Positions 1,987 to 34,154 of a DNA stretch of 64,000 nt are shown piece after piece. This DNA is from Eledone cirrhosa (Eukaryota). The notes under the pieces are model-generated. The model did not search any database, was not told the origin of the DNA, and saw only the letters and a program-made list of their open reading frames with translations. Positions within the stretch are counted from its first letter, which is position 1. Every line of letters starts with the position of its first letter. The DNA is taken from contig OZ024746.1 in assembly GCA_964016885.1 (NCBI GenBank), forward strand, positions 33,852,001 to 33,916,000, written 5' to 3'. Both the position numbers and the translations under genes were made by a program.

Positions 1987-3934
1987 AGTTTGTAATTGTA
2001 AAAAGAGAATAGATACGTGAAATACAGAGTGAGAGAGATTACAAAGAGTATTGTTGTTTTGCTCTGAAACTTATTCTTTACATGCAATTTTTTTTATAGA
2101 AGCAGGCATACTAAAATTAATCTATATTTACAGTAAAACTAAAGCAAAAGGTCTTACAAATAATACCTCAAGAGATTTGCATATATGGTTTCAACAAAAA
2201 ATTTCCGATTGCAGAATTTTTTTATTTTTACATTGATGACAAGTTCAATAAATTTTGATGTAATTTCTAATTTTGTTGTCATGTTTTACATTCTAACTAA
2301 ACATTCAAAACATAGCATTTCATTTTTCGTATCAGCATCGGTAGGAGATATATTAAATTAGCTGGTGACCTTCTTAAAACATGGGAGTCTATTTGATGTA
2401 ATAAACAATTATATACATGATTGTTGACTTCAGAATAAGAAAAGGGGCACAAAAAATGTGTTCTACATTGTTACCTCACTTTATATACTTGGTTGTTATA
2501 TTCCCATATATCAATTTTATGAGCTATATATTTTTCTATTTTGGAGTTTGTGTTTCACTTTTTATTACAATTACTACAGAATATATCCTATCATTTAGTC
2601 TTTCAGTGTTCAGACAACTTCATGACATGAAGATAGGTTATTGATATGCCCTCATATATTTAATGAAGTGTTTAAACCTCTCTAGCTTTTGAAGTGTTTA
2701 CGGTGTATCTTGTTGATTTTGTCTGTTGTTCTTTTATATTTTAGTTATTGTTTCAATAAAACACTCCATAATACTTCTAGTCAATTGTGTATGATGTCAC
2801 TTACTCTGTTTGTATTTGGGTGTGGATCTAAGTGCATATGATTCCTATCAAGGTAAACGCAGATGGCCATTCTGTGTTAATCGTTTACTTGTGTTTCGAT
2901 TTTTGCTCTCAATTTTTTTTTCTTACCTCTGTACATTTAATTTCTCTTTCATTTACTTCAGTAATGATAGGCTCCACCCTCTTGAGTTCTTCCGTGCGTG
3001 GGAACTAGCTTTTGCGGATAAATATTTTGTTGTATTTGAATATTTATTTTGTTTAAAAGCTGGTCTATATCGCCCTTGAAATATTTTGGCCTCTCATTGA
3101 ATAAATCCTCATAATTTTCTTTGTGTTTAATACACTTCTTTACGTATTTATTCGTTTTCCTCCAGAGCATTTATGTGACATCTACAATGCTTTTGTGGTT
3201 TGTATGTAGTATTGCAATGCAGAGTCCCTATAATTCACCCATATGGTTATCTTTTCTCAATCGTTCATTTCTCTTGAAAGTTGACATAATGAGACGACGC
3301 TGTATATTCTATATTATCGTTTAAGAGGATTCCCTTTCTGGGTACCATGTTATAAATCGATGTTCGTGGAGTTATTGCGAGAGACCCTCATTTCATTTCT
3401 CCTTTATTTTCCTTCTCATAAATATATATACGAGCAGAATTAATTGATTGATTTTTCTTTTAAATGTAAAAGCAATGGTTAGTTTCTACACAGATTTATT
3501 TCAAAATTACTCTTTTCTTATGTTGATTTCATCATTGGAAGTTCGTTTTCTATGTGATTTGCTTTGCTAGTTTTGCATGGTTTTGTGCGAGTTTTAATTA
3601 AGCATTACTTTTTAAAAGTAAGGCATTTTCCTACGTGATCTGCAACACTTTTTCTCTTTAGTGATTTGCTTTGAAATTCTTCGTGTTGCTTTCATCTTTC
3701 GCACGTGTTGCATATTGGCTCTCTTAAATACCATACATAAAATGTCATATATACCTTATGAGAAATATTCCAGTTTACTGTCTTGATATTGGTTAAAAGA
3801 TTATTCTTTCCCATTTCTCATTTAGTATATTTTTTGATTTATTGTATTTTGTATAGAGGCTTGGCATTGTAGTCTATAATATTTATATACTCAGAGTTTC
3901 CTTGTCAGAGCTTCAACCCTCAATCAATAAAAGA

Positions 3935-4576
3935 CAGAGCGGGACCGCTTGAAAACTGGAATGTCTTCAAGAGCTCATACGGGCAGTGCGATTGGTGAAA
4001 GTCCACCTTGGGGCTCTATAGAGGATTAGGGGGGGGGGTACATATGCCGACGTTCTTGTGGTGACTCTCGGTATTGACAAACATCAACTGGCCACTCTTT
4101 TCCAGAGGAGTTTCCGTCCATTACCCATGGATAACTTCCAGAAATCCCTGGCCTGGCAGTGCTACCAAGAAGGGTGCCGTTTCAGGATAGAATCTACAGA
4201 CATGTGAATACCGTCAGCCATCCCTTTCTGAGATGCATACAGGGCGCGAAAATTGTCGAGTATCAGAATATAGCTGGCTTGAGGCTTTATGTCGAACACC
4301 TGCTGTCAAGTGTTGCACGGATCCTTTAGAGGGGAAAGACAGGCTGTTTTTATTGTTCAGTCAGTGTTTGCATGGAAATTACGTAGGAATGAAACATCAG
4401 GTGGTTATGGATTGGTGGGGTTTCTGAGTCACCCCTGGATGGTTCTTCCCATTATTGGGTAATTTGTTATTGTTTGTTAATTTTTCCCTTTACTGGATTT
4501 TATTGTAAACACCCCACCTTTCCTGTCTTTTAGTATTGTCCCCTGTATATGGGCTTTAGTTGACAGTAAAGAACAC
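3935..4576 (+). mobile_element. Old, decayed 3' fragment of a Tx1-like LINE
   Basis: Aligns by eye to ORF2 at ~13220-13700 (ggaatgtcttca...; atggataacttccagaaatccctggcctggcagtgctacc). Ends in a 3'UTR 'tattgtaaac...tattgtcccct...taaagaa' followed by (ATC)/(ATT)n. Confidence 0.85.
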
Positions 4577-4618
4577 ATCATCATCATTATTATTATTACA
4601 ATCAATAGTAGTAGTAGC

Positions 4619-4698
<80 letters not shown>

Positions 4699-4705
4699 TA
4701 GTAGC

Positions 4706-4757
<52 letters not shown>

Positions 4758-4760
4758 ATC
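4577..4760. repeat. (ATC)/(ATT)/(AGT)n trinucleotide tract
   Basis: Read directly. Lies between the Tx1 3' fragment and the R4-like fragment. Confidence 0.95.
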
Positions 4761-4767
4761 ATGAGTT

Positions 4768-7007
4768 ATGCGCCTGTAACAATCGGGACGAGCTTGATTT
4801 CATGGCAATTCCAAATCCTTATTAACTCCCACTCTAAATCCTGGTATCGGTTAATTTTCTCCCTCTCCTTTTCTTGCACTCTCGTGTCAAATGGGCAGAC
4901 TACATCTACAATCAGGCACGATCTTTTTTCCTTTCCAAAACCACCAGGTCAGGCCTATTGTGTTCTAATTTCTTGTCCGTCTGTATCCTAAAATCCCATA
5001 GCACCTTCACCTGATCGTTTTCTATCACCGACTCTGGCTTATGCTCATACCACTTCTCAGAATGTGGTAAATTGTTTAGTTTGCATAGATGCCAGTGGAT
5101 CACCCTGCCTATCACATGATGTCTCCAGCCTTTATAGTGAGTCTGGGCTTGGTGTTTACACTCGGATACAATGTGAGCCACAGTCTCCTCTCTATCTCCA
5201 CAGATCCTATACAGTGAGCTAGCCTCCTTCTTGTCAATATGGTGTTTCACCCACTTCGTCCTGAGGGCTTGCACTTGCGCAGCCATTAGCATTCCTGCTG
5301 TAGCCTTTTTAAGGTCTCCTCTTTTTAACCAGTTCCATGTCTGTCGATCTCTAAATTCCGTTTACTTAAAGAAGGTACTATGAAGGGATTTTTCATGACG
5401 GTTACTCTTCCTCCTTATTGATAGTTCCTCCTTGGACATCCCCTGGTCTATTGTCTTCTCCTTCAGTACAAATTTGAGCATTGGCTACCTACTGTCAGTC
5501 ACATATTTATGCAGGTTGTTTTCTGAATCTGAACACAGTCCTCTATGCTGATAAAACCTCTTCCACCTTCAGATTTATTTAAGTAGAATCTATCGAAATC
5601 ACTCCCCTTTTGGAACATGTTATAAATAGTCAATAGCTTCCTAGTCTTCCTATCCATTTCGTTTTGTTCAGCAACATTCCATTTCGGAATTCCCCCACTG
5701 TACCTAATAATAGACACAGCTTGGGAATTTACTGCACTAATGACATTTCTAGTATTTAGAGGGTGTGGTTAATGGTGAGCTCTCCTTTTCCTAACTTGTA
5801 TGCTGCTGTCACTTTTCGCAATATAACGGTCAGAACTATCAGAGCAAGGACAAACAGCAGAGGGGATAAACTATCTCCCTGGAAGATACCTCTCTTGATC
5901 TTCACGCCTTTCAAATATTCTCCACCCGATGTTAACTCTGTTTCCCAGGACTTCCTACTTTTGCTCAACAACTGGCTGATATTATCTGCTACCTTGAAGA
6001 TCTCTAGGCTTTTGGTTATCCAAGAATGATGAAATATGTCGAAAACCTTTGTGTCTCCTCTTGCAATTCCTCATTACCATCTTATCAATAAGTAACTGGT
6101 CTTTTGTACCACGGGACTTCGTTCGGCATCCTTTTTGTTCGTCTGGCAACAAGTTGTTTAGAGGTGATGGTAGATTTCATCAGACACAATGTTTGTTAAC
6201 AGTTTCCACATTACGGACAGACATGTAATAGGCGTATAGTTAGTAACATCATTAACCTTGATTCGGTCGTTCCTTACCAGAACGGTGGTAAGTTTTGTCA
6301 ACCACTCTGGTACTTCACCCGACATCAAGCAGTCATTGGATATGGTTGTCAGTTCCTCTATGATAATATTTAGCTTTTTCCCCTAGTTTTGGATTTTATT
6401 TCCAATCTGTCTTTAGTGTCTGTGTTTTGCAATGTCCCTTTCAGTAAGGATTCAAGCTTTCCAAAGTCTTTTCTCATTTCCTTGATTTGACCATTCAGTC
6501 GTTTCTTCCACCAAGGTTCTGACCTTTCTTGTTTGTTGTTTCCTCTAGTTTTCATGCCAAGTATTTTCCTCACGTCATTTGCGGTTGCTTTGAGGATATT
6601 GTTGCATTGGTGAAGGTTCCTCGGCTCAAGGTATGGGATGACTTTGTTTACCTTAGCTGTTGTTTCTTTTAACTTTTTCCTGTATACAAATCTTAGGTTC
6701 ATACGTTTTCCACTATCATTGTTCCTTTCATCTACCACTAAGTTCAGGTTATCAACCAAATCTTGTCCTAGCCCGTCAGAATTAATTTCCTCAATGGTCG
6801 TATCTTTGTTACAGATGTTATTTATTTCAGCATTCAAATCATTGTCTGCTTCAGACGTTTCCCCAGGTCCCTCAACCTCTTCACCTTCATTTCCCATTGG
6901 CTCGTTTGCCTGAGATACTCCACTCTCTATTTCCAACTTAATCTCTCTGCTCAGTTCCTCCAATTCCAACTCGCTTATCCATCCATTAGTTCTTATTACC
7001 CGAGCCT
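4768..7007 (-). mobile_element. Deleted, fragmented R4/Dong-like (RLE) non-LTR retrotransposon
   Basis: ORF pieces include EPWWKKRL, RT RGIFQGDSLSPLLF, knuckle-like RICGDREETVAHIVSEC and RLE WDFRIQTDKKLEHNRPDLVV. Same family as 15398-19137. Confidence 0.9.
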
Positions 7008-7022
7008 CTCAATTTCCACATT

Positions 7023-7053
<31 letters not shown>

Positions 7054-7054
7054 T

Positions 7055-8150
7055 GCATGTATCTTGCTTTATGTTTATACGAGTTATCACCAAGTCACAA
7101 CCAGTGACCTCAAGAGACAACAAGGTCCGCCATGTTCAAGAAAGAACACACATATTCACACATGCATCCTTAGTGTTTAGACTTGTGATGTACTTATATT
7201 GACAGGATCTTCCTTAGTATATGGGCAGTTCCCATTAGTACTATCTTTTGTATTTCTCCTATACGCGGGTTTCCTGGGATTTGCGATAAGTAGTCGTTAG
7301 ACCCCTTAGGTATCATTCCCAGAGCGCCTACAACCACTGGTATTGTTTTAGTTCTCAATTTCCACATTTTTCCAATTTCTATCTCCAGGTCCTTATACTT
7401 GCTCAATTTTTCAAATGTTTTTATAGATACATTCTTGTCTATTGGAACAGACATATCAATTAGCAGGCATACCCTCCTTTGAAAGTCCTTCAATATTATA
7501 TCAGGTCTATTTGCATCTATTTTTCGGTCTGTTTGGATGCTAAAGTTCCACAAGATTGAGATGTGATCTTTTTCAAGTATGGGAGGTGGTTGATGCTCCC
7601 ACCAATTCTTTTGATGGGGCAGGTCAAAATGCTTACACATTATCCAATGTATGTATTGTGCAGCTCTGTCATGCCTGTTTAGGTATTCGGTTGGAGCTAT
7701 AGGACTGCACATTGAAATTATATGGTCAATGGTCTCTGGTTGTTTTTTGCATACACGGCATAATGGGCTGCACCCATTTTTTATTATGTTGGCTTGGTAA
7801 TTTTTTGTTGGCAGACACTGATCTTGTGCGGATATAATCAGTCCTTCAGTCTCCGATTTCAGTCCAGAGGATGCCAACCACTGATGGGTTAAAGTTTTGT
7901 CAACATCAGGATTGTTAGCTCGCTCTGGGTATTTTCCATACAGAGGCTTTTCTTGCCATTTCTTAGCCAGTTTCTGTAGCAGTTATTTCTTTGCAGTTAC
8001 TTTTACCTGCTTTGCTTTTTCTGTGTTTTCCATTTCAGCAGTAAATGGGACTTCTGAAATTTGTAGTCCATTACTGTATCTTTGTGCATCTTTTGTAATG
8101 GAATATGATCTTTTGGTGCTTTCGTGTTTCAAAACGAGTTTGATCATCCA
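7055..8150 (-). mobile_element. 5'-truncated R4/Dong-like LINE, second subfamily, flanked both sides by (ATT/AAT)n
   Basis: ORF 7194-7877 has CRVC..ETIDHIISMC, RHD, RPDI..ID, KLSKYKDL and IPVVVGALG. Repeats at 7026-7053 and 8150-8174. Confidence 0.92.
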
Positions 8151-8386
8151 TTATTATTATTATTATTATTATTGAATGCCATGGTTGACGGAGGCTCGGC
8201 TCTGTAAGGTATAGTAATTTTTAACCGTTAAAACAATTGTAAATTGTTTAAAACTTGAACCAAACTGTTGATAAAGACACCCTCCTCCTCGTGAGAGGGG
8301 TCTTTCTGTCCGTTATTTGGCCCTTCGGGGTTAAATAACCAGTTATTGGGGTTTTGTACCCAAAATTTCATTTTAAACAAAAAAAC

Positions 8387-10481
8387 ATGGCTACCAAAAA
8401 GAAATTTCATACGTCACTCCCACTCATTCCGTCTTCTTCTTCCTCAATCATCACTACAGCAGAGAGAAGATTGTCTCTCTCCCTCCCTTCTTTAAATGTG
8501 TCTCTCTCCCTCCCTTCTCTTTCGCAAGCGACGAAAGAAAAGAAAAGTCTCGTGCAAAGCGTGCAAGGTTTCTCCACGACGACGACGACAGCGACGAAAC
8601 AGGTGTGCGGGAAATACGAAAACCCAGTTCATTCGTCTGACGTCAGGAATAATAGCAGTAGCAGCCGTAATAACAACAGCAACAGTGACAATGAAAACAA
8701 CAGTAGCAGCCGCAACAGCATCACCAGCAGCATAAACAACAACAGCATTAGCAGCAGCAACACCAACAACAACCACAGCAACAGCGGCGGAGGCAGTAGT
8801 CGTAGTACCTGCAGCAACAAAAGTACCAGCAGCTCTGACGACAACAACAACAGCAGAGAAAAACCAATCTCATTTGCAGGTATTGCGAAAAACTTGGAAA
8901 CAATCCTCATAACAAATGAGGAATTAGAGGAAGCGAAGAAGATGGTGACAAAGAACGGACACCGAGCAATCTGCAAGGCAGCGAAAAATTTTTTCGAAAC
9001 CCAAGAGCACTGTACGGTCACGTACCGTACAGTAAGTACAAAATCCCGTAGGGTGGAAAGAGCCACAGAGGCTCAAATACAAAAAGCCTTGGGGTCTGTG
9101 TGGCAGAGGAAAACGCACATCACCCGAGGCAAAAAAATACGCCACCGTAGACGTACTTTTTGCCACACCCCAGGAGGCAAAGGCCCAATCAGTAGTGACC
9201 CTAAGGAGCGAGGAAATGGTGTTGGTGCCCTCCTACTGCGGGCAAAAAATTGTGAGGGTCAAACTGACCCACGTCCCCCCCGTAATGACCCCTTCTTGGC
9301 TGGCCGCGTCTGTCCTCGTCGGAATCGAGGACAAAACAACTGTACTGCAAGTACAGAAAAAAGTAAGAGAAGATTGGGTCGGCTCCTCCATTGAGATGCT
9401 AATCCAAACCAACCTAGAGTGCATCGAAGCTATCCCGGATGTGATAGACTTCGATAACGGCACTCAACTGCCCATAAGTGTTGAGGGCAAACGCCCGAAG
9501 TGCTTTCGCTGTGGATCGAAGACTCACCTCAGGGCCTTCTGCAACGAGAAGACCCTGAGAAAGGAGAAAACCCCCCTCCTTCCGAATCCGGCTCCACGGC
9601 TACCAGCAACAGGACAAGCGGCAACCAGGAACGATAGGTCCGTGGCACCCATACCCACTCCACGGAAATCAAAGACAGCAGCAGCAGTGGAAATATTAAC
9701 AACAACAACAGCAATACCAAATGCAGCTGCAACAGAGACTCCAGTGCAACCATCACCAACAACAACAAGTGAAAGAGTGGAGCTGGTACCCCTCCCCGAC
9801 TTTACAGAATCAGACATGGAGTGTGAGGTGGGAGAGAGATGGCAAAAGGTCGTAAGAAGGCACAAACGCAGAAGCAGCGCATCGTCGCCTTTGAAAAGGG
9901 AGGAAAGAAATGAGAAAAGGGTAAAGTCTACTGCAAAGAGACCCACAGCAGCAACAACACCAACACCATCACCACCCACACTAGCGCCACCATCACCACC
10001 GCCGACAACCCCACCGCCAACAGCACCTTCAACACCACCACCACAAGCACCAACATCGCAAACACAACAACAAAACACACACACCCAGCAACAACGACAA
10101 GAAAATAGCAGAACCACACCCCACCCCCAGAAAAACAAATGCACGGCAATAAATACACACAACAAGAAACTAATGACTTACATAATTGAACACACAGACA
10201 TTTCACAACAGGACTACATAATACCAGCACCAATCAAAACGCCAACTAACATAAGACTGCTAAAAATAGCACAGAAACAATACACAAATATTAAAACGAA
10301 ATTCCCCAACGCAGTTGGTGATTTCAGGGACCTAGGAGGAACCATCAATCGAAGAGTATACTCAGACATTCTCTTAGAAGAGCCGACGACCAGCCGAAGG
10401 GACGATTCAACGGTCCCTTCACCAGACGATCAAGTGAAAAGGGATGTAAAAACCCTCCCTCCTCTACCAAAAGTACGGTAA
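8387..10481 (+). CDS. Tx1-like ORF1 (gag-like, CCHC zinc knuckle), one frameshift at an A7 run (~9131-9137)
   Basis: CFRCGSKTHLRAFC (CX2CX4HX4C). ORFs 8354-9394 and 9195-10481 join as ...HITRGKK/YATVDV..., matching copy B. N/S/T/P low-complexity tracts. Confidence 0.85.
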
Positions 10482-10516
10482 GTGGTCTTTCCCATCTTTT
10501 CCACTCTATTTTAAAC

Positions 10517-13500
10517 ATGACCTCACTCAGAATAGGCAGCATAAATGCGCGTGGCTTGGGGTCGTCATGGAAGCAGGGTCACCTGCTCAACGACCTCAGG
10601 TCACTAAACATAGATGTAGTGGCCATCAGCGAGACCAGAATCTCCGAAGCACGGGCCTTCGCACCGATCTTCGGCGGCTACGATGTGTACGCATCTCCCA
10701 GCCGTCCTGGATCCGGTGCAGGAGTTGCTGTACTTTTTCGGAGAGGTTTGGATCTCGCCATACGGGCCATCTTCCTGGACCCAGAGGGTAAGCTGGTGGT
10801 GCTGGACGTGACCAGCAGAGACGGGCAAGCTTTCAGGCTAGTGGCCGTCTATGCCCCGACAGGAGCAGGGCGGCCTGATTTCTTCCGGCGTCTGGAGACC
10901 TTTCTTGGAACGTCGCGCTCTTTAGTGTTAGTGGGCGACTGGAACGGGATCTTAGATGCTAGCTGGGACTGTGTGGGATTAGCGGATAGGGGTGGAGGGT
11001 GCAAGAGCCTCACCAACCTGCTCAGGCGTTTTGAACTGTCTGACAGGTACCGATTGGATTTCCCGAATGTGCCAATGTGGACTTGGACAAACCGCATAGG
11101 GTCATCCAGATCATATCTAGATAGAGTATTTTGTAGGGAAATAGATAGGTCTAGCATAGGCTGTCCACAATTCAAGATAGTCAGCTACACGGACCACAAA
11201 TTCGTGATCTGTGTGCTTGACTTAGATAGGCTTCATAGACGAGGACCCGGCTACTGGAAGCTAAACGCGTCCTTACCAGCGCGCAAGGCCTACAGAGACC
11301 GGATTAGCGAACTAGTTAAGCGGGCGTTGACGGGGGCCATCGTCAACAACAAGTGGTGGTTTGCTCTGAAAAGAGCGATTAGAATAGAATCGATTAGGTT
11401 TAGTAAGGCTTTAGCAATAGAGAAAAATAGAGCAGAGGGAGAACTAGTTAGAAAATTAGACGAGGCGCTTAGCAAAGGCATTGCGACCGACGTGCTTGCG
11501 GCGAAATTGGCCCTTAACCAATTCTTCAATGCAAAGCACAAAGGCTGCGTTGTCAGAGCTAGGGTGCGTGCTCTCAGACACGAGGGGACGAAAGCCGTTC
11601 AATGGGCCCGAGTGGCGGAGGCGCGTCGTGGCAACAAAGGCACGATCCGGTCTTTGGTGGACCACGACGGGCGCATGCTACTCGATCCCGGGCAAATGTG
11701 TGAAGCTTTTCAGCGACACTTCGCTCAGCTGTTCGGGGGCAGCGGGGGGCCGGGTAGAGGGATGGACTTTAGTGTCTACCTCGACGGACTGCCGCGGCTC
11801 TCGGCCACTGAGGCGAAGTGTTGCGAAAAGCCGATAACAGCCGCTGAAGTACGGGAGGCAATGACTGGCTGCACAAGGGGTAAATCGCCTGGTTTGGATG
11901 GTCTGCCCTATGAACTTTACGTACAGATGCCAGACTTGTTCGGAGGCCTCTTGGCGGACGTCTACTGCAACTGGCAACAGAACGGGAGAATTCCCAGTTC
12001 TGTGAGCCGAGGAGCGGTGGCACTGCTGAGAAAGGATCCGAACAAGGGGGATAACATAGACAATTTCCGGCCCATAACTCTGCTAAACACAGAGTTTAAG
12101 ATTTTGGCCAAGGTGCTAGCAAAGAGGTTGGCGCTTGTCGTTGGTGGTCTGGTGGGAGAGGCGCAGACATGCGCCATTCCCGACAGATCCATCCACGACA
12201 ACCTCCACCTCATGCGATACATCGTAGAGAGGGTAGCTAGGGAACCTGGCACGGGTGGGTCCTTGATCAATTTAGATCAGTCGAAAGCTTTCGATAGGGT
12301 CGACCATCGTTACCTAGCGGCAGTCCTGAGGGCGGCTGGCTTTGGGCCCGTCTTCAGAGGCTGGATCGCTGCCATGCACAGCGACATCTGCTCTGTGGTG
12401 AGAGTGAACGGTCACCTGTCGGAACCGTTCAACATCATGCGCTCGGTCCGCCAAGGATGTCCCCTCTCGTCCCTCTTGTACGTATTGACTCTCGAGCCAT
12501 TACTGCACAAACTGGAGACGTTGAGGGGAGTCCCGCGCGAACTAGGATGCGGAAGATCCGTGTCAGCATATGCGGACGATGTCACCGTAGTGGTGTCGAA
12601 CGCCAAACACATCGAGGCGATCGGCACTACACTAAGAGAATACGAAGCGGTGACAGGAGCAATGATCAACCAGGAAAAGTCAGTGGGCCTGCAGCTCGGC
12701 ACCTGGAGAGGCAGGTCCATGCCGTCCAACAGCGTCGTCGGGCGCTGGACGGACGGACCGGTTAAATTGCTAGGGGTCTGGTTCGGTCCGGACCTCCAGA
12801 CGGACAAAAACTGGGACGAGGTGACGAGCAGGGTGGCTTCTCTCACCCAGAAATGGGCGGAGAGGAAGCTATCCCTGAAAGGTCGAGCGGAGGTGGCTAA
12901 CGCGTACATCGCGTCTGTCATCTGCTACCGCCTGACCGTCGTACCTTGTCCTAAGCTTCGCCTGACTGCGCTGGAGCGTTTGCTCTTTCGCTTTTTGTGG
13001 AAGGGACGTGCTCCGATGGTCAGGCGGTCCATCTGTTGTCAACACCCGCTACGTGGAGGGCTGGGCATGCCGTGGCTGATGATGCGCAGGCACGCGCTCA
13101 GGCTACGACATCTCCACCTCTTCCTCGACGGTGATCAGGTGTGGTCGCCGTTTGCTAGGCGCGTATTACCCCAGCTCGTTTCCTTGACGGAGCTGCAGTC
13201 CTGGGTCAAGCGAAGACCGAGAGGGAGCGCCTGGAGACTGGAATGTCTTCAGGCGCTCACAGCCCTCGACCAATCGGGCAATGTGATCGGTGGAAACTCC
13301 ACCTCGGCGTTCTATAGAGGATTAGTGAAGGGGAAGAGCGACGACGTACTTGGGGAAACTCTAGGCGTCGACGAAAATCAACTAGCCAATCTCTTCGGAA
13401 GAACTTTCGGGCCGGGGCCTATGGACAACTTCCAGAAATCTCTGGCCTGGCAGTGCTACCGAGGAGCCTTGCCAGTTCGGGATAAACTCTACAGGCATGG

Positions 13501-13934
13501 AGGTGCCGTCAGCCGGGCATGTCCGAGATGCGCGCAGGGCGACGAGACCGTCCTGCACGCACTCGTCCAGTGTCCAAAAATTGCTGACTTGTGGGTTTAT
13601 GTCGAACCTGCTGTCGCGTTTAGGACGGATCCGGCTATCATCTGAGTCCATTGTGAGGATTGCTCCGGCCTCCTCCTTTAGCCGGGAAGGGCAGGCAGTT
13701 TTTATCTGTCTGGTGGCCATGGCGAAAGAGATAGTATGGTGGACACGTTTGAAAGGGCTGAAGACGAGCACTTACCTCTTCGGTGATGCTCTGATTGACT
13801 TTTTCAAATTTCATTTGAAAAGGAAAATCAGAGTAGAGAGGGAAGTGCTCTCTTCCCAGCATTTTGTTGAAAGATGGGTGAGAGAAGCAAGAATGGCCCG
13901 AGTGAATGGGCCTACTCTGAGTATATATCTGTAA
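10517..13934 (+). CDS. Tx1-like ORF2: apurinic-like endonuclease + reverse transcriptase + C-terminal CCHC. A 2-nt deletion near 13607 shifts the last ~110 aa
   Basis: APE motifs SINARGL, ISET, VYAP, GDWN, YLDRVF, TDH. RT motifs KSPGLDG, FRPITLLN, DQSKAFDRVDH, RQGCPLS, YADD. C-terminal CPRC..ETVLHALVQC. gaacctg here versus gaacacctg in copy B. Confidence 0.95.
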
Positions 13935-14183
13935 ATTAAAGGTGGAAAACTGGGAGAGGGCACTTGCCTTGGTGGTCAGGGTCATTGTGGCTTTTTACTG
14001 GGCTCTCCACAAATGTCCCTCCGAAGTCTCCCCCCTATTGGGGAATCTTTCATTGTTATTTTTTGTTACATCCTCTGTTTTTGTTTTTTACACGCAGAAA
14101 TGCCCATTTGTACCGTCCTGCATTGTCCTGCACTGTCCTTAATGTCTACTTTATGTAAACCCTTGTGGTTAATAAAGAAATCA

Positions 14184-14214
<31 letters not shown>

Positions 14215-14217
14215 TAT

Positions 14218-15348
14218 TGTTATTCCTTGAATCTCAGTCATTGATGTTGGTTAACTGGAAAGTCCGTTGGATTGAATATCAAGCCACTACCTGCAGCCTC
14301 AGATATTCAGGACGTATCGGAGGGTTCTTGCTGTTCCAAGCAAGCATGCCTTTTGAAGCGTTCCAAAAAGCGTGAAGGGGCCGATTTTCTTTAACCATCC
14401 CTGGAAACTTTTGGAGATAGTCCCCAGTGCGCCTATGACAATCGGGATCACTTTGACTTCATGGCAGTTCCAGATCCTTTTCACCTCCCACTTTAGGTCC
14501 TGGTATCGGTTAATTTTCTCCCTCTCCTTCTCTTGCACTCTCGTGTCGAACGGGCAGGCCACATCCACAATCAGGCACGATCTTTTTTCTTTGTCCACAA
14601 CCACCAGGTCAGGTCTATTGTGTTCCAATTTTTTTTGTGCGTCTGTATCCTAAAATCCCACAGCACCTTCACCTGATTGTTCTCCATCACCGCCTCTGGC
14701 CTATGCTCATACCATTTCTCAGAATGTGGTAGATTGTTTACTTTGCACAGGTGCCAGTGGATCACCCTGCCCATCACATCGTGTCTCCAGCCCTTGTAGT
14801 GGGTCTGGGCTAGGTGTTTACACTCGGACACAATGTGAGCTACAGTCTCCTCTCTCTCTCCACAGATCCTGCACAGTGGGCTAACCTCCTCCTTGTAGAT
14901 ATGGTGCTTCAACCACTTCGTTTTGAGGGCCTGCTCCTGCGCAGCCATTAGCATTCCTTCTGTAGCCTTTTTGAGGTCTCCTCTTCTCAACCAGTTCCAT
15001 GTCTGTGGATCTCTAAATTCAGTTTTCCTAGTCTTCCTATCCATTTCTTTTTGTTCAGCAACATTCCATCTCAGAATTCCCGCACTGTACCTAATAATAG
15101 ACACAGCTCGGGAATTTACTGCGCTTATGGCATTTCTGCTGTTCAGATGTGACTTCAATACGCTCCTTACTCTCCGAATGTATTCAGTTCTTAACAATTC
15201 CTTCATTTTTTTGTTCTTTATGCCATCAGCCTCCATCACTGCTGAAAATACGGACAGTGTCAACAAGCACATCCAACTCCTTCTCACTTTTCCCGAAGAG
15301 CTTAAGGTCGTCCATGAAGAGGAGGTGATTTATGGTAAGCTCTCCCCT
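14218..15348 (-). mobile_element. 5'-truncated, internally deleted R4/Dong-like LINE, tail-to-tail with Tx1 copy A
   Basis: FMDDLKLF, CRICGEREETVAHIVSEC, RHD and RPDLVVVD..VDVACP..EKINRY. The 3' end abuts (AAT)n on its own strand. Confidence 0.92.
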
Positions 15349-15363
15349 TAATAATAATAATAA

Positions 15364-15394
<31 letters not shown>

Positions 15395-15397
15395 TGT

Positions 15398-18300
15398 TTT
15401 TGTTATTCCTTGAATCTCAGTCATTGATGTTGGTTAACTGGAAAGTATGTTGGAATGAATATCAAGCCACTACCTGCAGCCTCAGATATTCAGGACGTAT
15501 CGGAGGGTTCTTGCTGTTCCCAGCAAGCATGTCTTTTGAAGCGTTCCAAAAAGCGTGAAGGGGCCGATTTTCTTTAACCATCCCTGGAAACTTTTGGAGA
15601 GGTCCCCAGTGCGCCTATGACAATCGGGATCACTTTGACTTCATGGCAGTTCCAAATCCTTTTCACCTCCCACATTAGGTTCTGGTATCGGTTAATTTTC
15701 TCCCTCTCCTTCTCTTGCACTCTCGTGTCGAATGGGCAGGCCACGTCCACAATCAGACACGATCTTTTTACTTTGTCCACAACCACCAGGTCAGGTCTAT
15801 TGTGTTTCAGTTTCTTGTCCGTCTGTATCCTAAAATCCCATAGCACCTTCACCTGATCGTTTTCTATCACCGACTCTGGCTTATGCTCATACCACTTCTC
15901 AGAATGTGGTAAATTGTTTAGTTTGCATAGATGCCAGTGGATCACCCTGCCTATCACATGATGTCTCCAGCCTTTATAGTGAGTCTGGGCTTGGTGTTTA
16001 CACTCGGATACAATGTGAGCCACAGTCTCCTCTCTCTCTCCACAGATCCTGCACAGTGGGCTAGCCTCCTCCTTGTAAATATGGTGTTTGAACCACTCCT
16101 CTTGTGGACAACACTCCTCTTGTGGAACATGTTGTAGATAGTCAATAGCTTTCTAATCTTCCTATCAATTTCTTTCTGTTCAGCAACATTCAATCTCAGT
16201 CTTCCCGCACTGTACCTAATAATAGACTCAGCTCGGGAATTTACTGCACTTATGGCATTCCTACTATTCAGATGTGACTTTAATACGCTCCTTACTCGCC
16301 GAATGTATTCAGATCTTATCAATTCCTTCATGTTTTGTTTCTTGATGTCATCAGCCTCCAGAATACCCAAATACTTGTATCCTTCTTCAGTGTCAATTTC
16401 CTTTGTCATCTCATCTGTTGGTACCTGGATTCCGTTGCTTCTGCTCAATTTACCCCCTCTTCATCACAAGGACTCCACACTTACTAATACCAAATTGCAT
16501 ACATATATCATTGCTGATACGGACAGTATCAACAAGCACATCCAACTCCTTCTCACTCTTCCCGAAGAGCTTAAGAGCGTCCATGAAGAAGAGGTGATTG
16601 ATGGTAAGCTCTCCCTGACCCAACTTGTATCCTGCTCTCACTCTTCGTAGTATAATGGTCAGGGACATCAGGGCAATGACAAACAACAGAGGGGACAGAC
16701 TATCACCCTGGAAGATACCCCTATTGATCTTCACGCCTTCCAAGGATTCTCCAGCTGATGTTAACTCTGTTTTTCAGGACTTCATACTTTTGCCCAACAA
16801 CTGTCTGATGTTATATGCCACCTTGAAGATCTCTAGGCTTTTGGTGATCCAAGGATGAAGCACCATGTCAAATGCCTTTTTGTAGTCTATCCATCCCATG
16901 GCAAGACCAGTGTGTCTCCTCTTGCAATTCCCCATTACCATCTTATCAATAAGTAACTGGTCCTTTGTACCACGGGACTTCTTTCGGCATCCTTTATGTT
17001 CGTCCGGTAACAAGTTGTTTGTGTGGAGGTGATGGTAGATTCCCTCAGACATAATGCTTGTCAACAGTTTCCACATTACGGATAGACATGTGATATGTCT
17101 ATAATTGGTAACATCATTACCCTTGATTCGGTCTTTCATTACCAGAACTGTGGTACCTTTTGTCAAACACTCTGGTACCTCACCTGACATCAAGCAGTCA
17201 TTGAACATGGTTGTCCGTTTCGGCTGGAGGGATGTTATATTTTTAATCCAATACCCCTGCACACCATATGGGCCTGGTGATTTCCAGTTGGTTAGTTTTT
17301 TAGCCTGCCCCTTAAGAGTTTCAACTGTGATACTCAAATCAGTTTGTTGGTGTGCCTGTTCACTAATCTCTTTTTGAACTGTCTCAATCCACACTGCCTG
17401 GTCATTATGTTTAACATCCTGCTCCCATATTCCTCTCCAGAATGTCTTAGTTTGTTCCGCCTCAGGGATCAAGTCGTTGCCTCTTTTTATCCCTTCAAGC
17501 TGACCAAACAGCATCTTCTGGTTGTTGTCAAACATGCAGTTCTGTCTATACTGACTGACTCTGCTCTCGTATAGCCTAATCTGTTCACTCTTTGCTACAA
17601 TTCGTTGCTTCAGTTCCTCTATGATAATATTTAGCTTTTTCCTTCTAGTTTTGTACTTTAATTCCAGTCTATTTTTAGTGTCTATATTTTTTAGTGTCCC
17701 ATTCAGTAGCGACTCAAGCTTTACAATGTCATTTCTCATTTCCCTGACTTGACCATTCAGTCGTTTCTTCCACCAAGGTTCTGATCTTTCTTGTTTGTTG
17801 TTTCCTTTCGCTTTTATGCCAAGTAATTTCCTCACCGCATTTGCTGTTGCTTTGAGGATAATGTTGCAATGGTGAGTGGCTCCTCACCTCAAGGTATGGG
17901 ATAACTTTGTTTACCTTAGCTGTAGTTTCTTTTAACTTTTTCCTGTATACAAATCTTAGGTTCATAGGTTTCCCACTATAATTGTTCAATTGATCTACCA
18001 CTAAGTTTAGGATATCAACCAAATCTTGTCCTAGCCCGTCAGCATTAATCTCCTCAATGGCGGTATCTTTGTTCCAGGTATTATTTATTTCAGCATTCAG
18101 ATCATTGTCTGCTTCGGATGGTTCCTCCGTTCTCTCAACTTATTCACCTTCATTTCCCACTGTCTCGTTTGCCTGGCATACTCCACTCTCCATTTCCAAC
18201 CTAATCCCTCTGCTCAGTTCCTCTAGTTCCAGCTCGCTAAGCACCCATTAGTTCTTATTACCCGAGCCTGCCCGGCTAATTTTTGTTCATCTAATTTAAA

Positions 18301-19137
18301 TAGACCAATCTCGTTCCAGATGTTATGCATCCGTTTCCAATAGTCTTTCTCCTTGGGGTTACTCTTCAGGTAACATTGCATAACAGTTCTATTCAATTAT
18401 TTCGTCCCGTTGGTTCTGGTCCCTTTCCTTCTTCTTCTTCCTCCGACACCAGCAGTATTTGGTTGACAGCTAGGACCCCGCTGCTGAGCCTGAGAGCACC
18501 TGTTGGGTGAGAGTCTGTCACATGACATTCCAGTCTCCACTTCACCGTTATTCGAACTGTTTAGGTTCGACATTTAATCACTCTTATCGAGGATTGGTGA
18601 AGGTATGGTTACATAACCACCGGTGATTTTATTGTGGCAGTATCACGGTGTAGACGAACATAAATAAACAAACAAAGAAATAGGTAAAAAAAAAAAACCC
18701 AAAAGAATAAGCATAATTTCCATTTTAATGTAATGTTTGAATGTCTGACTTACTTTTTTTTTTTTTACCTCCTTCTCTGTCTGTCCGTTTGTTTTTCTTT
18801 TCACTTTTCTTTTCTTTACGTTTTTCGTTGTTGCTGAGCTGTTTTGATTTTGATTTTTGGTTTTTTGATTTTTTGACCGAGTCATCATATCAGTCTATTT
18901 ATATCTTTTGATGCCTTCCTCTTTTAGTGGGGTTACTACGATGCATGTCTTAGGAGGAGGTAGTCGGAGAGAATAGCGGCGGTAGCGATAATGAGTTAGT
19001 GGTGGTGGTGGTGGTGGTGCTGTGCTAGTAGTACTTAGCAGGAGTTAGTGGGAGAGAATAGCGGCGTTAGCGATAATGAGGCAGTGGTGGAGGTGATGTG
19101 ATCGTAGTACTGTAGTGATGATGGTGTTGAAGTTGAA
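15398..19137 (-). mobile_element. Near full-length but disrupted R4/Dong-like LINE (putative ATG at 18573)
   Basis: N-terminal VMQCY.KSNP..KRMHNIW..EQKLAGQARVIR, RT (KSPGP, DYKKAFDMV, GIFQGDSLSP) and RLE. Multiple stops and frameshifts. 5' limit assumed at the (ATT)n 19138-19167. Confidence 0.88.
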
Positions 19138-19496
19138 ATTATTATTATTATTATTATTATTATTATTGGCGACCTACGTAGTAAATCGTATCATCGTGAG
19201 CTCCGCAAATGTTTGTTATTTTCAGTTGTTGAAAATTGCCATTCATGGAAAATGTTATTGTTAACTTTATATAAGGGCTCATACATTGTTATCTGAAAAG
19301 GACACCAAAAAAGATTGGAGCCTTGATCACAAAATTTAAACTTTTATAATTATCAAACAAAAATATTTCTTTGAAACATCATGGCTGACTCAGAGTCACT
19401 CCTCTCTCACAAAATAACACCTCACACGACACCACCATTGTAAACATTACTACGTTTGCCAACACTAAAAATATAAGCAGTAGCAATATTTTAAAT

Positions 19497-20845
19497 TTGT
19501 CTCAGGCATATATTCATTTCCCGCCATTACCAATTAGTGCAGGTGTTAAAATCGCCACCACCACCACCACCGCAACAACCCCCACCCTCACCACCACCGC
19601 GACAATAGAAACAAAAGAAAAAAATAAATTAACTCGTGATATCGAAATTAAATCAACCAAAATGAACTCTTCCACACCGAACACCACTGATGCCACCACC
19701 ACCACCACAACTGAAAATAAAATTAATAATAACAAAAATAACGATAACAACAACAGCAACAATGAAACTAAGAAAACCACTCTGAGTTTTGCCAGAGTAG
19801 CAAAACAGTGCGAACCATTTCAGGTAACACAGGAGGGATTAGAAGAAGCCAAACAAATAGTAAAGAAAGATGGGTACAGGGTCAGCTTCACCCCCCCCCC
19901 CCCAACTAGTAAAATGGAGCATCGGCGCCTATGCACCGTGTCTTATCGAACAAATAATATAAAATCGCGCCGAGTGGAACGGGCATCCGAGTCCCAAATC
20001 CAAAAAGCTTTGGGACATGTGTGGGCAAAAAAAACCACATCAGACGCGGGCAGAAATATGGAAGAGTGGACGTGTTCTTTGAAACACCACAGGAGGCTAG
20101 AGAACACTCCATGGTCCCATTAAGGAGTGACGACTTCACACTCGTTCCAAGCTATTGTAGCCAGAGACTCGTAAAGGTCAGGGTGACCCACGTTCCACCG
20201 GCCATCGAAATTCCCTGGCTAATAGCTACCGTCCTCGCTGGCACCGAAGCCAACACCAAGATAATCGAAATAGCGAAAGAAAAGCAGGAGAACTGGTCCA
20301 GATCGGGGATGGAGCTCCTGATCCAAGCGGACCAAAAAAGCATTGAGGAGATCCCAGAGGTAATAGACCTCACTGACGGCAGCCACCTCACCGTAATCGT
20401 CGAGGGTAGAAGGCCTAGGTGTGTCGTTTGTGGTGAAATAACCCACCTAAGGGCTTTCTGCCCTCAGGCTAAAAGTTTGAGGCCACCTCTCCTACCCACC
20501 CCAGACAACCCACAACAAACGCAAACAAAACAAAACAAGCAAAACGATACACACTACACAGCATTACAGTTGAACAACAACGAATTATTACACTACATGC
20601 AACGCAACAGCAGCATCACAGAAAAAGACTACACAACAACCCAAAAGTTCACACCACCTCCACACATACAAATCACTCGCATCACACAGAAAACGTACAC
20701 GACACTAAAACAAAAATTCCCCAAAGTCATCGGAGACATCCGACAAACACTCTCCAGGAGGATTTATAAGGACATCCTTCCGGAGGAGGCCACTAGCAGT
20801 GAAAAGGATGGACAAACCATCCTTCCTCTACGAGAAGTAAGGTAA
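19497..20845 (+). pseudogene. Tx1-like ORF1 of copy B, frameshift at an A8 run (20027-20034). Start codon uncertain
   Basis: CVVCGEITHLRAFC knuckle. SFA..AK, CTV.YRT..KSRRVERA.E.QIQKALG and LVPSYC are shared with copy A. Confidence 0.8.
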
Positions 20846-20879
20846 GTGGTCTTTGCCAACTTTTCCACTCCATTTCAAC

Positions 20880-23800
20880 ATGACCTCACTCAGAATAGGC
20901 AGCATAAATGCGCGTGGCTTGGGGTCGTCATGGAAGCAGGGTCACCTGCTCAATGACCTCAGGTCACTAAACATAGATGTAGTGGCCATCAGCGAGACCA
21001 GAATATCCGAAGCACGGGCCTTAGCACCGATCTTCGGCGGCTACGATGTATACGCATCTCCCAGCCGTCCTGGATCGGGGGGAAGAGTTGCTGTGCTTTT
21101 TCGGAGAGGTTTGGATCTCGCCATACGGTTCATCTTCCTGGACCCAGAGGGCAAGTTGGTGGTGCTGGACGTGACCAGCGGAGACGGGCAAGCTTTCAGG
21201 CTAGTGGCCGTCTATGCCCCAACAGGAGCAGGGCGGCCTGATTTCTTCCGGCGTCTGGAGACCTTTCTTGGAACGTCCCGCTCTTTAGTGTTAGTGGGCG
21301 ACTGGAACGGGATCTCAGATGCGCGCTGGGACTGTGTGGGATTAGCGGATAGGGGTGGCGGGTGCAAGTGCCTCACCAACCTGCTCAGGCGTTTTGAACT
21401 GTCTGACAGGTACCGATTGGATTTCTCGAATGTGCCAATGTGGATTGGACAAATCGCATAGGGTCATCCAGATCATATCTAGATAGAGTATTTTGTAGGG
21501 AAATAGATATGTCTAGCATAGGCTGTCCACAATTGAAGATAGTCAGCTACACGGACCACAAATTCGTGATCTGTGTGCTTGACTTAGATAGGCTTCATAG
21601 ACGAGGACCCGGCTACTGGAAGGTAAACCGTCCTTACCAGCGCGCAAGGCCTACAGAGACCGGATTAGCGAACTAGTTAAGCGGGTGTTGACGGGGGCCA
21701 TCGTCAACAACAAATGTGGTTTGCTCTGAAAAGAGCGATTAGAATAGAATCCATTAGGTTTAGTAAGGCTTTAGCAATAGACAAAAATAGAGCAGAGGGA
21801 GAATTAGTTAGAAAATTAGACGAGGCGCTTAGCAAAGACAGTGCGACCGACGTGCTTGCGGCGAAATTGGCCCTTGATCAATTCTTCAATGCAAAGTACG
21901 AAGGCTGCGTTGTCAGAGCTAGGGTGCGTGCTCTCAGACACGAGGAGACGAAAGCTGTTCAATGGGCCCGAGTGGCGGAGGCGCGTCGTGGCAACAAAGC
22001 CACGATGATCCGGTCTTTGGTGGACCACGACGGGCGCATGCTACTCGATCCCGGGCAAATGTGTGAAGCTTTTCAGCGACACTTCGCTCAGCTCTTCGGG
22101 GGCAGCGGTGGGCCGGGTCGAGGGATGGACTTTAGTGTCTACCTCGACGGACTGCCGCGGCTCTCGGCCACTGAAGCGGAGTGTTGCTAAAAGCCGATAA
22201 CAGCCGCTGAAGTAAGGGAGGCAATGACTGTCTGCACAAGGGCTAAATCGCCTGGTTTGGATGGTCCGCCCTATGAACTTTACGTACAGATGTCAGACTT
22301 GTCAGGAGGCCTCTTGGCGGACGTCTACTGCAACTGGCAACAGAACGGGACAATTCCCAGTTCTGTGAGCCAAGGAGCGGTGGCACTGCTGAGAAAGGAT
22401 CCGAAAAAGGGGGATAATATAGATAAACTCTGCTAAACACAGAGTTCAAGATTTTGGCCAAAGTGCTAGCAAAGAGGTTGGCGCTTGTCGTTGGTGGTCT
22501 GGTGGGAGAAGCGCAGACATGTGCCATTCCCGACAGATCCATCCACGACAACCTCCACCTCATGCGATACATCGTAGAGTGGCTAGCTAGGGGACCTGGC
22601 ACGGGAGGGTCCTTGATCAATTTAGATCAGTCAAAAGCTTTCGCTTGGGTCGACCATCGTTACCTAGCGGCACTCCTGAGTGCGCTGGCTTTGGGCCCGT
22701 CTTCAGAGGCTGGATCGCTGCCATGCACAGCGACATCTGCTCTGTAGTGAGAGTGAACGGTCACCTTTCGGAACCGGTCAACATCATGCGCTAGGTCCGC
22801 CAAGGATGTCCCCTCTCGTCCCTCTTGTACGTATTGACTCTCGAGCCATTACTGCACAAACTGGAGACGTTGAGGGGGGTCCCGCGCGAACTAGGATGCG
22901 GAAGATCCGTGTCAGCATATGCCGACGGTGTCACCGTAGTGGTGTCGAACGCCAAACACATCGAGGCGATCGGCACTACACTAAGAGAATACGAAGCGGT
23001 GACAGGAGCAATAATCAACCAGGAAACGTCAGTGGGCCTGCAGCCCGGCACCTGGAGAGGCAGGGCCATGCCGTCCAACAGCGTCGTCGGGCGCTGGACG
23101 GACGGACCGCTTAAATTGCTAGGGGTCTGGTTCGGTCCAGACCTCCAGACGGACAAAAACTGGGACGAGGTGACGAGCAGGGTGGCTTCTCTCACCCAGA
23201 AATGGGCCGAGAGGAAGCTATCCCTGAAAGGACGAGCGGAGGTGGCGAATGCGTACATCGCATACGTCATCTACTACCGTCTGACCGTCGTACCTTGTCC
23301 TAAGCCCCGCCTGACTGCGCTGGAGCGTTTGCTCTTTCGCTTCTTGTGGAAGGGACGCGCTCCGATGGTCAGGCGGTCCATATGCTGTCAACACCTGCTA
23401 CGTGGAGGGCTGGGCATGCCGTGGCTGATGATGCGCAGACACGCGCTCAGGCTACGACATCTCCACCTCTTCCTCGACGGTGATCAGGTGTGGTCGCCGT
23501 TTGCTAGACACGTTTTTCTTAGCTCGTCTCCTTGACGGAGCTGCAGTCCTGGGTCAAGCGAAGACCGAGAGGGAGCGCTTGGAGACTGGAATGTCTTCAG
23601 GCGCTCACAGCCCTCGACCAATCGGGCAATGTGATCGGTGGAAACTCCACCTTGGCCTTCTATAGGGGATTAGTGGAGGGGAAGAGCGACGACGTACTTG
23701 GAGAAACTCTAGGCGTCGACCTAAATCAACTAGCCAATCTCTTCGGAAGTACTTTCGGGCCGGGGCCTATGGACAACTTCCAGAAATCCCTGGCCTGGCA

Positions 23801-24284
23801 GTGCTACCGGGGAGCATTGCCAGTTCGGGATAAACTCTACAGGCATGGAGGTGCCGTCAGCCGGGCATGTCCGAGATGCGCGCAGGGCGACGAAACCGTC
23901 CTGCACGCACTCGTCCAGTGTCCGAGCATTGCTGACTTGTGGGTTTATGTCGAACACCTGCTGTCACGTGTAGGACGGATCCAGCTATCAGCTGAGTCCA
24001 TCGTGAGGATTGCTCCGCCCCCTTCCTTTAGCCGGGAAGGGCAGGCAGTTTTTATCTGTCTGGTGGCCATGGCGAAAGAGATAGTATGGTGGACACGTTT
24101 GAAAGGGCTGAATACGAGCACTTACCCCTTCGGTGATGCCCTGATTAACTTTTTCAAATTTCCTTTGAAAAGGAAAATCAGGGTAGAGAGGGAAATGCTC
24201 TCTTCCCACCATTTTGTTGAAAGATGGGTAAGAGAAGCAAGTATGGCCCGAATGAATGGGCCTTCTCTGAGTATGTGTCTGTAA
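20880..24284 (+). pseudogene. Tx1-like ORF2 of copy B with several frameshifts and stops (YADD changed to YADG)
   Basis: Near-identical to 10517-13934 but split into at least 7 ORF pieces. Confidence 0.93.
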
Positions 24285-24774
24285 ATTAAGGGTGGAAAAC
24301 TGGGAAAGGGCACTTGCCCTGGTGGTCAGTGTCAATGTGGTCTTTTAATGGGCTTTCTCCACAAATCTCCCTCGGAAATCTCCCCCCCTATTGAGGAATT
24401 TTTCTTTGTTATTTTATTTCATCCTCTGTCTTTTACACGCAGAAATGCCCATTTGTACCGTCCTGTATTGTCCTGTACTTAATGTCTACTTTATGTAAAC
24501 CCTTGTGGTTAATAAAGAAAACATTATTATTATTATTATTATTAGTAGTAGTAGTAGTAGTAGTGTTAGTAGTAGTAGTGGTTGTAGCAGCAGAATGTTT
24601 CCTTATCTCACGCCTACACGAATATATCATCATTGTCATCGTCTGCTTCGTTGAAAACATCATTATTATCTTCTTTAATATCGTATAATTATAACATAAA
24701 TACATATCGTTATCATCATTTTATATTTTTATATGTTCATTGTTAAATTAGTCTTGCCATTATGCACTTTTACT

Positions 24775-24868
24775 CGACCTTATTGTAAACCCCCACTATC
24801 CCTGTCTTTGTATTGTCCCCTACATGTCGGCCGTTGTGGCTAATAAATGAAATCATTATCATCATTAT
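24775..24868 (+). mobile_element. Short 3' tail of another Tx1-like copy
   Basis: tattgtaaacccccactatccctgtctttgtattgtcccct...aataaatgaaatcattatc resembles 4501-4590. Confidence 0.6.
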
Positions 24869-24962
24869 TAACTTTGCCTTTCATCCTTACGGGGTCGATA
24901 AAATAAAATACCAGTAATACACTGGTTAAGTGATGGCCTTGTGCCAAAATAGAAACAATTAT
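24869..24962 (+). mobile_element. 3' part of an octopod-type SINE
   Basis: actttgcctttcatccttacggggtcgataaaataaaataccagt...ggccttgtgccaaaatagaaacaatt. Same family as 29485, 46727, 46905 and 63335. Confidence 0.8.
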
Positions 24963-29455: not shown

Positions 29456-29484
29456 ATGCCAGCGTTGCCCATATTAAAGAAAAT

Positions 29485-31140: not shown

Positions 31141-34154
<3,014 letters not shown>

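Follow-up and report, generated by a model that had tools for sequence, protein, structure and literature searches.

We analyzed a 64,000-nucleotide stretch of Eledone cirrhosa contig OZ024746.1 (hereafter, the window), in which two groups of long interspersed nuclear elements (LINEs) are packed into an array. By reading the sequence and by using lists of open reading frames (ORFs), self-BLAST, and translated searches over 3000-26000, we found eight elements, which cover 19,846 of the array's 20,975 bases. Four of these are Tx1-like copies, of the apurinic/apyrimidinic endonuclease (APE) type, and four are R4/Dong-like copies, of the restriction-like endonuclease (RLE) type. An earlier note on this DNA had proposed the order Tx1(+), R4(-), R4(-), Tx1(+), R4(-), R4(-), Tx1(+), Tx1 tail(+). 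Self-BLAST and translated searches confirm this order, as well as the strand split, with 4/4 APE-type copies on the plus strand and 4/4 RLE-type copies on the minus strand. The array does not start at 3935, as the note had it, because Tx1A begins at ~3872-3896. The features are as follows (UTR, untranslated region; nt, nucleotide; aa, amino acid).

3896..4597, plus strand: Tx1A, a 5'-truncated Tx1-like copy of a diverged type, with the end of ORF2, the 3' UTR, and an (ATC)3(ATT)4 tail (70% nt identity to Tx1B and Tx1C over 3896-4324; protein match from 3872; 3' ends aligned)
4606..4757, plus strand: (AGT)n microsatellite of ~50 units (152 bp) between Tx1A and R4a (from the sequence)
4758..7007, minus strand: R4a, a decayed, 5'-truncated R4/Dong-like copy that has internal deletions and no longer has its 3' end and tail; it belongs with R4c and R4d in one family (segments with 82-93% nt identity to R4c/R4d; stops and frame changes)
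7008..7025, no strand: 18-nt insert at the R4a 5' junction, identical to 7354-7371 within R4b (exact 19-nt match counting 7007)
7026..7053, plus strand: (ATT)n tract, the 3' tail of R4b
7054..8149, minus strand: R4b, a 5'-truncated R4/Dong-like copy of a second family, with C-terminal CCHC and restriction-like endonuclease motifs (~41% aa to R4a/c/d and no nucleotide match; homology to relatives begins at ~8150)
8150..8173, plus strand: (ATT)8, head-to-head between the 5' ends of R4b and Tx1B; not the 3' tail of any element
8174..14182, plus strand: Tx1B, a full-length Tx1-like LINE with a 213-nt 5' UTR, ORF1, ORF2, and 3' UTR
14183..14224, plus strand: (ATT)n tract, with Tx1B and R4c tail-to-tail
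14225..15348, minus strand: R4c, a 5'-truncated, internally deleted R4/Dong-like copy with an intact 3' end (87-91% nt identity to R4d)
15349..15407, no strand: palindromic (TAA)5|(ATT)n tract, formed by inverted units at the R4c 5' junction and by the R4d 3' tail (15-bp perfect arms centred after 15363)
15408..18619, minus strand: R4d, a decayed R4/Dong-like copy that is nearly full-length, with its ORF starting at 18573; 5' junction without a clear tract (5' limit from a loose end at 18619 in two contigs of run X1 and from a drop in depth)
18620..19137, no strand: spacer that is not part of an element and ends in a compound triplet-repeat region (no R4 protein match; low depth; sequence)
19138..19167, plus strand: (ATT)10 directly 5' of Tx1C; neither a tail nor next to an R4 copy
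19168..24522, plus strand: Tx1C, a full-length, more decayed Tx1-like LINE with a 213-nt 5' UTR
24523..24587, plus strand: (ATT)7 and then (AGT)n, where the Tx1C tail runs into a host triplet tract
24750..24870, plus strand: Tx1D, a ~120-bp fragment of a 3' end, 77% identical to the 3' end of Tx1A, with a mixed ATC/ATT tail (self-BLAST and 3'-end alignment)

The array is a real nest of eight separate LINE insertions. The R4 copies differ in their truncation points and internal deletions, and R4b has no twin, so these are separate insertions rather than a duplication. In the core of the array (R4a-R4b-Tx1B-R4c-R4d; 4769-18619, 13.9 kb), host DNA is absent. The four gaps between these five elements range from 24 to 59 bp (46, 24, 42, and 59 bp) and consist of repeat, plus one 18-nt templated insert.

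Of the two full-length Tx1-like copies, Tx1B is the less decayed. Its ORF1 (8387-10481) encodes a CCHC knuckle and has one frameshift near 9131; its ORF2 (10517-13934), which encodes APE, reverse transcriptase (RT), and zinc finger domains, runs for 1031 codons without a stop and has one late frameshift, near 13605. In Tx1C, the part that aligns with the closest protein (P0001, 79%, for which there is no DNA context) shows about five frame changes and up to three stops. Both copies have the two-ORF layout, with a CX2CX4HX4C zinc knuckle in ORF1. ORF1 has no match in Pfam, while ORF2 matches PF03372, PF00078, and PF13966 (APE endonuclease, RT, and C-terminal zinc finger), an architecture that does not discriminate Tx1 from L1. 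The best matches of Tx1B's APE domain among solved structures are L1 endonucleases (E 8e-7 to 3e-6). The catalytic APE motifs N, E, Y, D-x-N, D, and D-H are all kept. The hairpin loop of this domain is short, with an L1-like length, and lacks the extension seen in the Tx1L graft of PDB 2v0r.

Tx1B and Tx1C are 92-98% identical across ORF2 and the 3' UTR. Their ORF1s are 47% identical (aa), and their 5' UTRs cannot be aligned (similarity score of 33, which is not above shuffles; 300 shuffles, mean 23, maximum 36). Yet each copy begins at the last ATT of a tract, and the distance from this ATT to ATGGCT is 213 nt in both. The equal lengths of unrelated UTRs support both being true 5' ends. The copies carry different 5' UTR/ORF1 modules (8174-10432 in Tx1B, 19168-20797 in Tx1C), and the switch at ~10433/20798 lies shortly before the end of ORF1; families of a sister lineage (described below) are alike in this. 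Also, the ATT of the Tx1A and Tx1C tails is in both cases followed by (AGT)n (4598-4757 and 24544-24587), which keeps to the strand of the ATT.

The R4/Dong-like copies belong to two families: R4a, R4c, and R4d (88-93% nt identity in the shared segment) versus R4b (~41% aa, no nucleotide match). They have the motifs of R4/Dong, namely RT, a CCHC finger, and a PD..D-x-K restriction-like endonuclease in a single ORF, and their pieces map in order on full-length relatives. The nearest solved proteins of one R4 relative (P0190) are from R2, and the named relatives of these copies are uncharacterised proteins of fish, corals, anemones, and beetles. R4a carries several stops, and the N-terminus of R4d is frameshifted. 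Three of the four copies have a (TAA)n 3' tail, and the 3' end of R4a is lost. At the 5' junctions, (TAA)n is clean in R4b, lies behind the 18-nt insert in R4a, is inverted in R4c, and is missing in R4d. Similarly, among truncated R4-like fragments in the genome bin G001, sense-strand (AAT)n is present 5' of the R4 match, close by in L085 and L086 and at a greater distance in L082 (we inspected three of the five fetched loci; the other two are copies of L082).

That R4/Dong elements target (TAA)n, as the earlier note held, is established in the sections of PMC3812793 and PMC7998251 that deal with Dong, and R4b is cut mid-ORF exactly at a tract. The R4 half of the array is ordinary Dong-like behaviour. 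We considered whether R4b extends across the tract at 8150 into the 5' UTR of Tx1B, and rejected this: most relatives start at the tract edge, and 8174-8400 by itself gives nothing better than E 0.02 among the matches listed. Two oddities accompany these copies. The 18-nt insert at 7008-7025 lies between the 5' end of R4a and the tail of R4b, and as a copy of R4b-internal sequence (7354-7371) it could reflect abortive priming or a template jump. At the truncated 5' junction of R4c, 15349-15378 form a perfect 30-bp (TAA)5/(ATT)5 palindrome, which might arise from fold-back synthesis.

Perfect (ATT)n tracts of at least 4 units occur at 4586, 7028, 8150, 14183, 15363, 19138, and 24523. If we consider perfect AAT/ATT tracts of at least 5 units, there are seven within 3896-24870 (at six sites, as two are halves of the 15349 palindrome), and two in the remaining 43 kb of the window (48 of 43,025 bases). 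The earlier note placed a tract at each junction of the array. This is true of four sites (7026, 8150, 14183, and 15349), where a tract joins two elements directly, and fails for the other three. The tract at 4585 is the tail of Tx1A and is followed by the 152-bp (AGT)n, and R4a has neither its 3' end nor its tail; the tract at 24522 is the tail of Tx1C and lies ~200 bp from Tx1D; and the tract at 19138 is ~520 bp from R4d. The note also proposed that all Tx1 copies lie on the ATT strand and all R4 copies on the AAT strand. The copies do follow this rule, although polarity is mixed in the perfect (TAA)5|(ATT)5 palindrome at 15349, and to a large extent the rule follows from the tracts being the elements' own 3' tails. 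More precisely, the tracts at 4586, 7028, 14183, 15363, and 24523 are 3' tails, and their polarity was set by the element that made the tail.

Only two tracts (8150 and 19138) are not tails and so can test the orientation rule. Each is directly 5' of a full-length Tx1 copy. At 8150, the tract edge coincides with the point where R4b breaks off mid-ORF, and for 92 of 116 relatives, homology begins in the bin 8130-8159. Near 19138, other copies in run X1 diverge from the window at 18619 (two contigs), and depth drops about sixfold (~21k in the bin 18772-19195 vs. 121k and 88k in the neighbouring bins); 18620-19137 has no R4 protein match. Tx1C occupies a separate host tract, and its flanks rejoin as a single compound triplet tract. 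Overall, 2/2 full-length Tx1 copies have a 5' tract, and both have (ATT)n on both sides. The chance of two insertions with that polarity is 8e-6, given a generous background in which every tract of at least 4 units is an available target, for a window that was itself picked for this pattern.

From these two copies, we are fairly confident that the Tx1B/C family has some preference for (ATT)n. As judged from sequence, this Tx1-like family is likely (n=2) to target (ATT)n and thus to share Dong's target on the other strand, as TRAS and SART share theirs. More broadly, the nest probably grew because the R4/Dong-like group and the Tx1-like family both insert into (ATT/AAT)n from opposite strands, with the insertion of Tx1 directed by its endonuclease.

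Several observations weigh against this reading. There are just two informative copies, and both are in one window that was selected for the pattern. If the target were strict, the truncated Tx1 copies (A and D) would have a tract on their 5' side, and neither does; these copies are of the diverged type and look older, and the DNA upstream of Tx1D is rich in ATC/ATT without a clean tract. In other words, the earlier note's claim that Tx1 is (ATT)n-specific fits both 5'-complete copies, despite their unrelated 5' UTRs, and misfits both truncated copies of the A/D type. The 5' junction of R4d has no clear tract either. In the sister lineage, AAT/ATT tracts of at least 4 units number 0 in 400,940 bases of sister loci. 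Finally, we take the plus-strand elements to be Tx1 from their motifs, with no anchor to a named reference: no relative among the matches is named Tx1, and the protein tree contains no Tx1 anchor.

Compared to contigs from X4 (another organism code; 8 of 60 aligned pieces), Tx1B has 55 differences in ~5.6 kb (1%), and the differences are 1.5% for R4b, 3.7% for R4c, and 8% for R4d, an age order that mixes subfamily differences with age, which is a further point against. This order suggests that Tx1B and R4b were the latest arrivals and inserted into the tract that separated older R4 copies. The simplest history would be an older R4a-R4c-R4d chain, with Tx1B and R4b later entering its short spacer. 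If so, Tx1B must have struck a tract of only a few tens of bases. The raw-read runs X22 and X23 covered only low-complexity patches (4/30 bins each).

How could both groups use one repeat? Read on their own strands, the R4 copies terminate in (AAT/TAA)n and the Tx1 copies in (ATT)n. Target-primed reverse transcription uses a primer strand that can pair with the tail of the RNA. By this geometry, the (AAU)n tail of an R4 RNA would call for priming on a nicked ATT strand, and for a Tx1 RNA with an (AUU)n tail, the APE domain would nick the AAT strand, which would serve as primer. After each insertion, the new copy would be flanked by repeat and would have brought a further stretch of it as its tail, which would allow later copies to land between earlier ones. 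The compound microsatellite that Tx1C would have split is a separate one nearby. The earlier note called the array self-feeding. For the 13.9-kb core this is apt in the usual sense: after a target-primed insertion, the new copy has target on either side. We saw no sign of one clade recruiting the other or depending on it. Self-feeding is what normally follows when a target is regenerated, and mutual dependence of the clades is unnecessary.

The site might be chosen by the endonuclease or by pairing of the tail, and the sequence fits either. Perhaps Tx1 reaches (ATT)n without a sequence-specific endonuclease, if its (AUU)n RNA tail pairs with exposed 3' ends of the AAT strand, which could come from loose nicking, from breaks in the repeat, or from the second-strand cut of the R4 enzyme. 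This would account for the same junctions. Also, the mixed ATC/ATT tails of Tx1A and Tx1D and their lack of 5' tracts are as a loose preference predicts, and the short APE hairpin loop is L1-like, unlike the extended loop of Tx1L (PDB 2v0r). However, the tract at Tx1C has no R4 adjoining, the catalytic motifs of the APE domain are intact, and the choice of target by Tx1 elements is ascribed mainly to the endonuclease in PMC4494074. We consider this explanation unlikely.

Another idea, which we find harder still to believe, is that Tx1 has no target preference and carries (ATT)n at both ends, with the 3' tail at one end and, at the other, a 5' leader or a short duplication that has expanded. 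In that case, R4 alone would target the repeat and pile onto the ends of Tx1. The read comparison over 6900-19600 skipped repeat zones and gave no 5' or 3' flanks, so 5' flanks and 5' leaders are not separable in reads, and the sister arrays show that the lineage keeps short spacers between copies. But two unrelated 5' UTRs would each require the same leader, and the flanks of Tx1C read as one split triplet tract. Furthermore, R4c and R4d seem to predate Tx1B and R4a has decayed further, which means that none of the three can have used the ends of Tx1B as a target. As for the apparently periodic order, a segmental duplication of an (R4, R4, Tx1) unit or an assembly artefact is very improbable: the breakpoints of the supposed units are mismatched (self-BLAST, translated searches), the second unit contains nothing that matches R4b in nucleotide sequence, R4a, R4c, and R4d are truncated differently and are 88-93% identical, the 5' halves of Tx1B and Tx1C differ, and Tx1A is only 70% identical.

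Beyond P0001, the closest proteins form a sister group (P0002-P0018; 39-45% aa, 100/100 tree support) that includes eukaryotic-looking contigs in G001. These are the nearest relatives with DNA context (42-43% aa in ORF2, 42 overlapping loci). The G001 loci are head-to-tail arrays in which several 5' UTR/ORF1 types are joined to a conserved ORF2, and the 3' end is at AATAAA. Behind the AATAAA comes a non-repeat spacer of ~17 nt, which truncated copies also have in front of them. In the APE domain, the hairpin loop exceeds that of the window's Tx1 by two residues. Clustered insertion is thus a trait of the lineage, and the lack of ATT tracts and the ~17-nt non-repeat spacers imply that the ATT target is not lineage-wide. 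An Rfam search of the window and seven sister loci gave no match and hence no hint that an RNA gene serves as target. No close relatives with DNA context turned up in a metagenome scan with the window protein or in viral contigs. A further scan found 37 distant loci (best segment 22-51%, mostly <35%), which we did not use for flanks, and another scan of G001 matched ATT tracts alone.

We tentatively suggest, as something that may well turn out otherwise, that the window's Tx1-like lineage switched the specificity of its APE domain to the A-rich (AAT)n strand, that it shares this microsatellite with Dong across the genome, and that the two clades build mixed arrays of opposite orientation that regenerate each other's target.

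The sister arrays (L038-L079) are on eukaryotic-looking contigs of up to 94 kb within a bacterial genome bin, with a period of 6.4-6.9 kb. Their ~17-nt spacer differs between array types and is kept before the truncated copies L060 and L075, which suggests repeated insertion at the element's own 3' junction.

Each ingredient of our explanation has precedent, so the surprise is moderate. Microsatellite-targeting LINEs listed in PMC3812793 include Waldo (ACAY), Mino (AC), Kibi (TC), Koshi (TTC), and Dong (TAA); Togen is specific for (TG)n (PMC4640811, in part), and sections of PMC4494074 describe crocodilian Tx1 families that target (TTCC)n/(TTTC)n. The latter study's criterion for a target-specific Tx1 family is one type of target in >20% of flanks genome-wide, and the whole words ATT, AAT, TAA, and TTA are absent from its main text. 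We found no (ATT)n-specific Tx1 family in the literature that we searched, which did not include Repbase Reports, Kojima and Fujiwara 2004, or Fig. 3 and the supplements of PMC4494074, and such a family may have been described. According to parts of PMC7998251, the target of Dong is (TAA)n in most insects, molluscs, and cnidarians, and R4/Dong elements have an N-terminal SANT/Myb-like domain. TAA repeats upstream of Dong's 5' end were used in PMC3774820 (relevant section). In Octopus vulgaris, a passage of PMC13282606 reports 1129 Dong-R4 and 421 L1-Tx1 recently active insertions, and it does not analyse their targets.

The window's R4 copies resemble Dong from Bombyx mori, Anopheles gambiae, and Biomphalaria glabrata in having an RT with a C-terminal CCHC and restriction-like endonuclease, a (TAA)n 3' tail, and (TAA)n at a truncated 5' junction (PMC3812793 and PMC7998251, sections on Dong). 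Unlike Dong, there are two families here (~41% aa apart) and only 1/4 copies has a clean 5' tract. Like Kibi, Koshi, and the crocodilian Tx1 elements as described in sections of PMC4494074, the window's Tx1 copies are APE-type two-ORF elements with a flanking microsatellite, but the flanks are (ATT)n rather than a pyrimidine repeat of the (TC)n/(TTC)n type, and the likeness is by description. The closest precedent for the arrangement is TRAS and SART, two families that insert into one telomeric repeat of B. mori in opposite orientations and form mixed arrays (parts of PMC10088271, which also cites a telomere-specific Tx1). However, both of these are R1-clade APE elements at telomeres, whereas the window has RLE and APE elements of distant clades in an interstitial microsatellite. 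The sister Tx1-like lineage shares the several 5' UTR/ORF1 types on a conserved ORF2, the AATAAA 3' end, and strongly clustered insertion, but it forms pure head-to-tail arrays with ~17-nt non-repeat spacers and no ATT, and it has the longer hairpin loop.

What would be new, if true, is (ATT)n as the target of a Tx1-like group, as this target is already known for R4/Dong-like elements. If it holds genome-wide, then (ATT)n would join the known Tx1 targets, and the two groups would provide a natural RLE/APE pair of unrelated endonucleases that meet at a single repeat, each from its own strand. A direct comparison for switching of APE specificity would come from the sister lineage, given its other spacer and longer hairpin loop. 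Sharing of the target would also offer a straightforward reason why such genomes have LINE clusters and many AAT repeats.

The window contains other repeats. There are ORF remnants at 26134-27252, 32389-33423, and 44197-44730, which we take to be Penelope-like; 44200-44730 has a weak GIY-YIG match (E 3e-4). The remnant at 32389-33423 is flanked by an inverted repeat (31368-31907 / 33504-34061, 91%) with internal ATT tracts. A short interspersed repeat occurs at 24868-24970, where it begins directly after the tail of Tx1D, and at 29475-29660, 46724-46988, and 63343-63504, with two inverted copies close by at 46.7-47.0 kb. Lastly, 62346-63096 is a tandem satellite with a period of ~83 bp and about nine units, which are 83-88% identical (self-BLAST).

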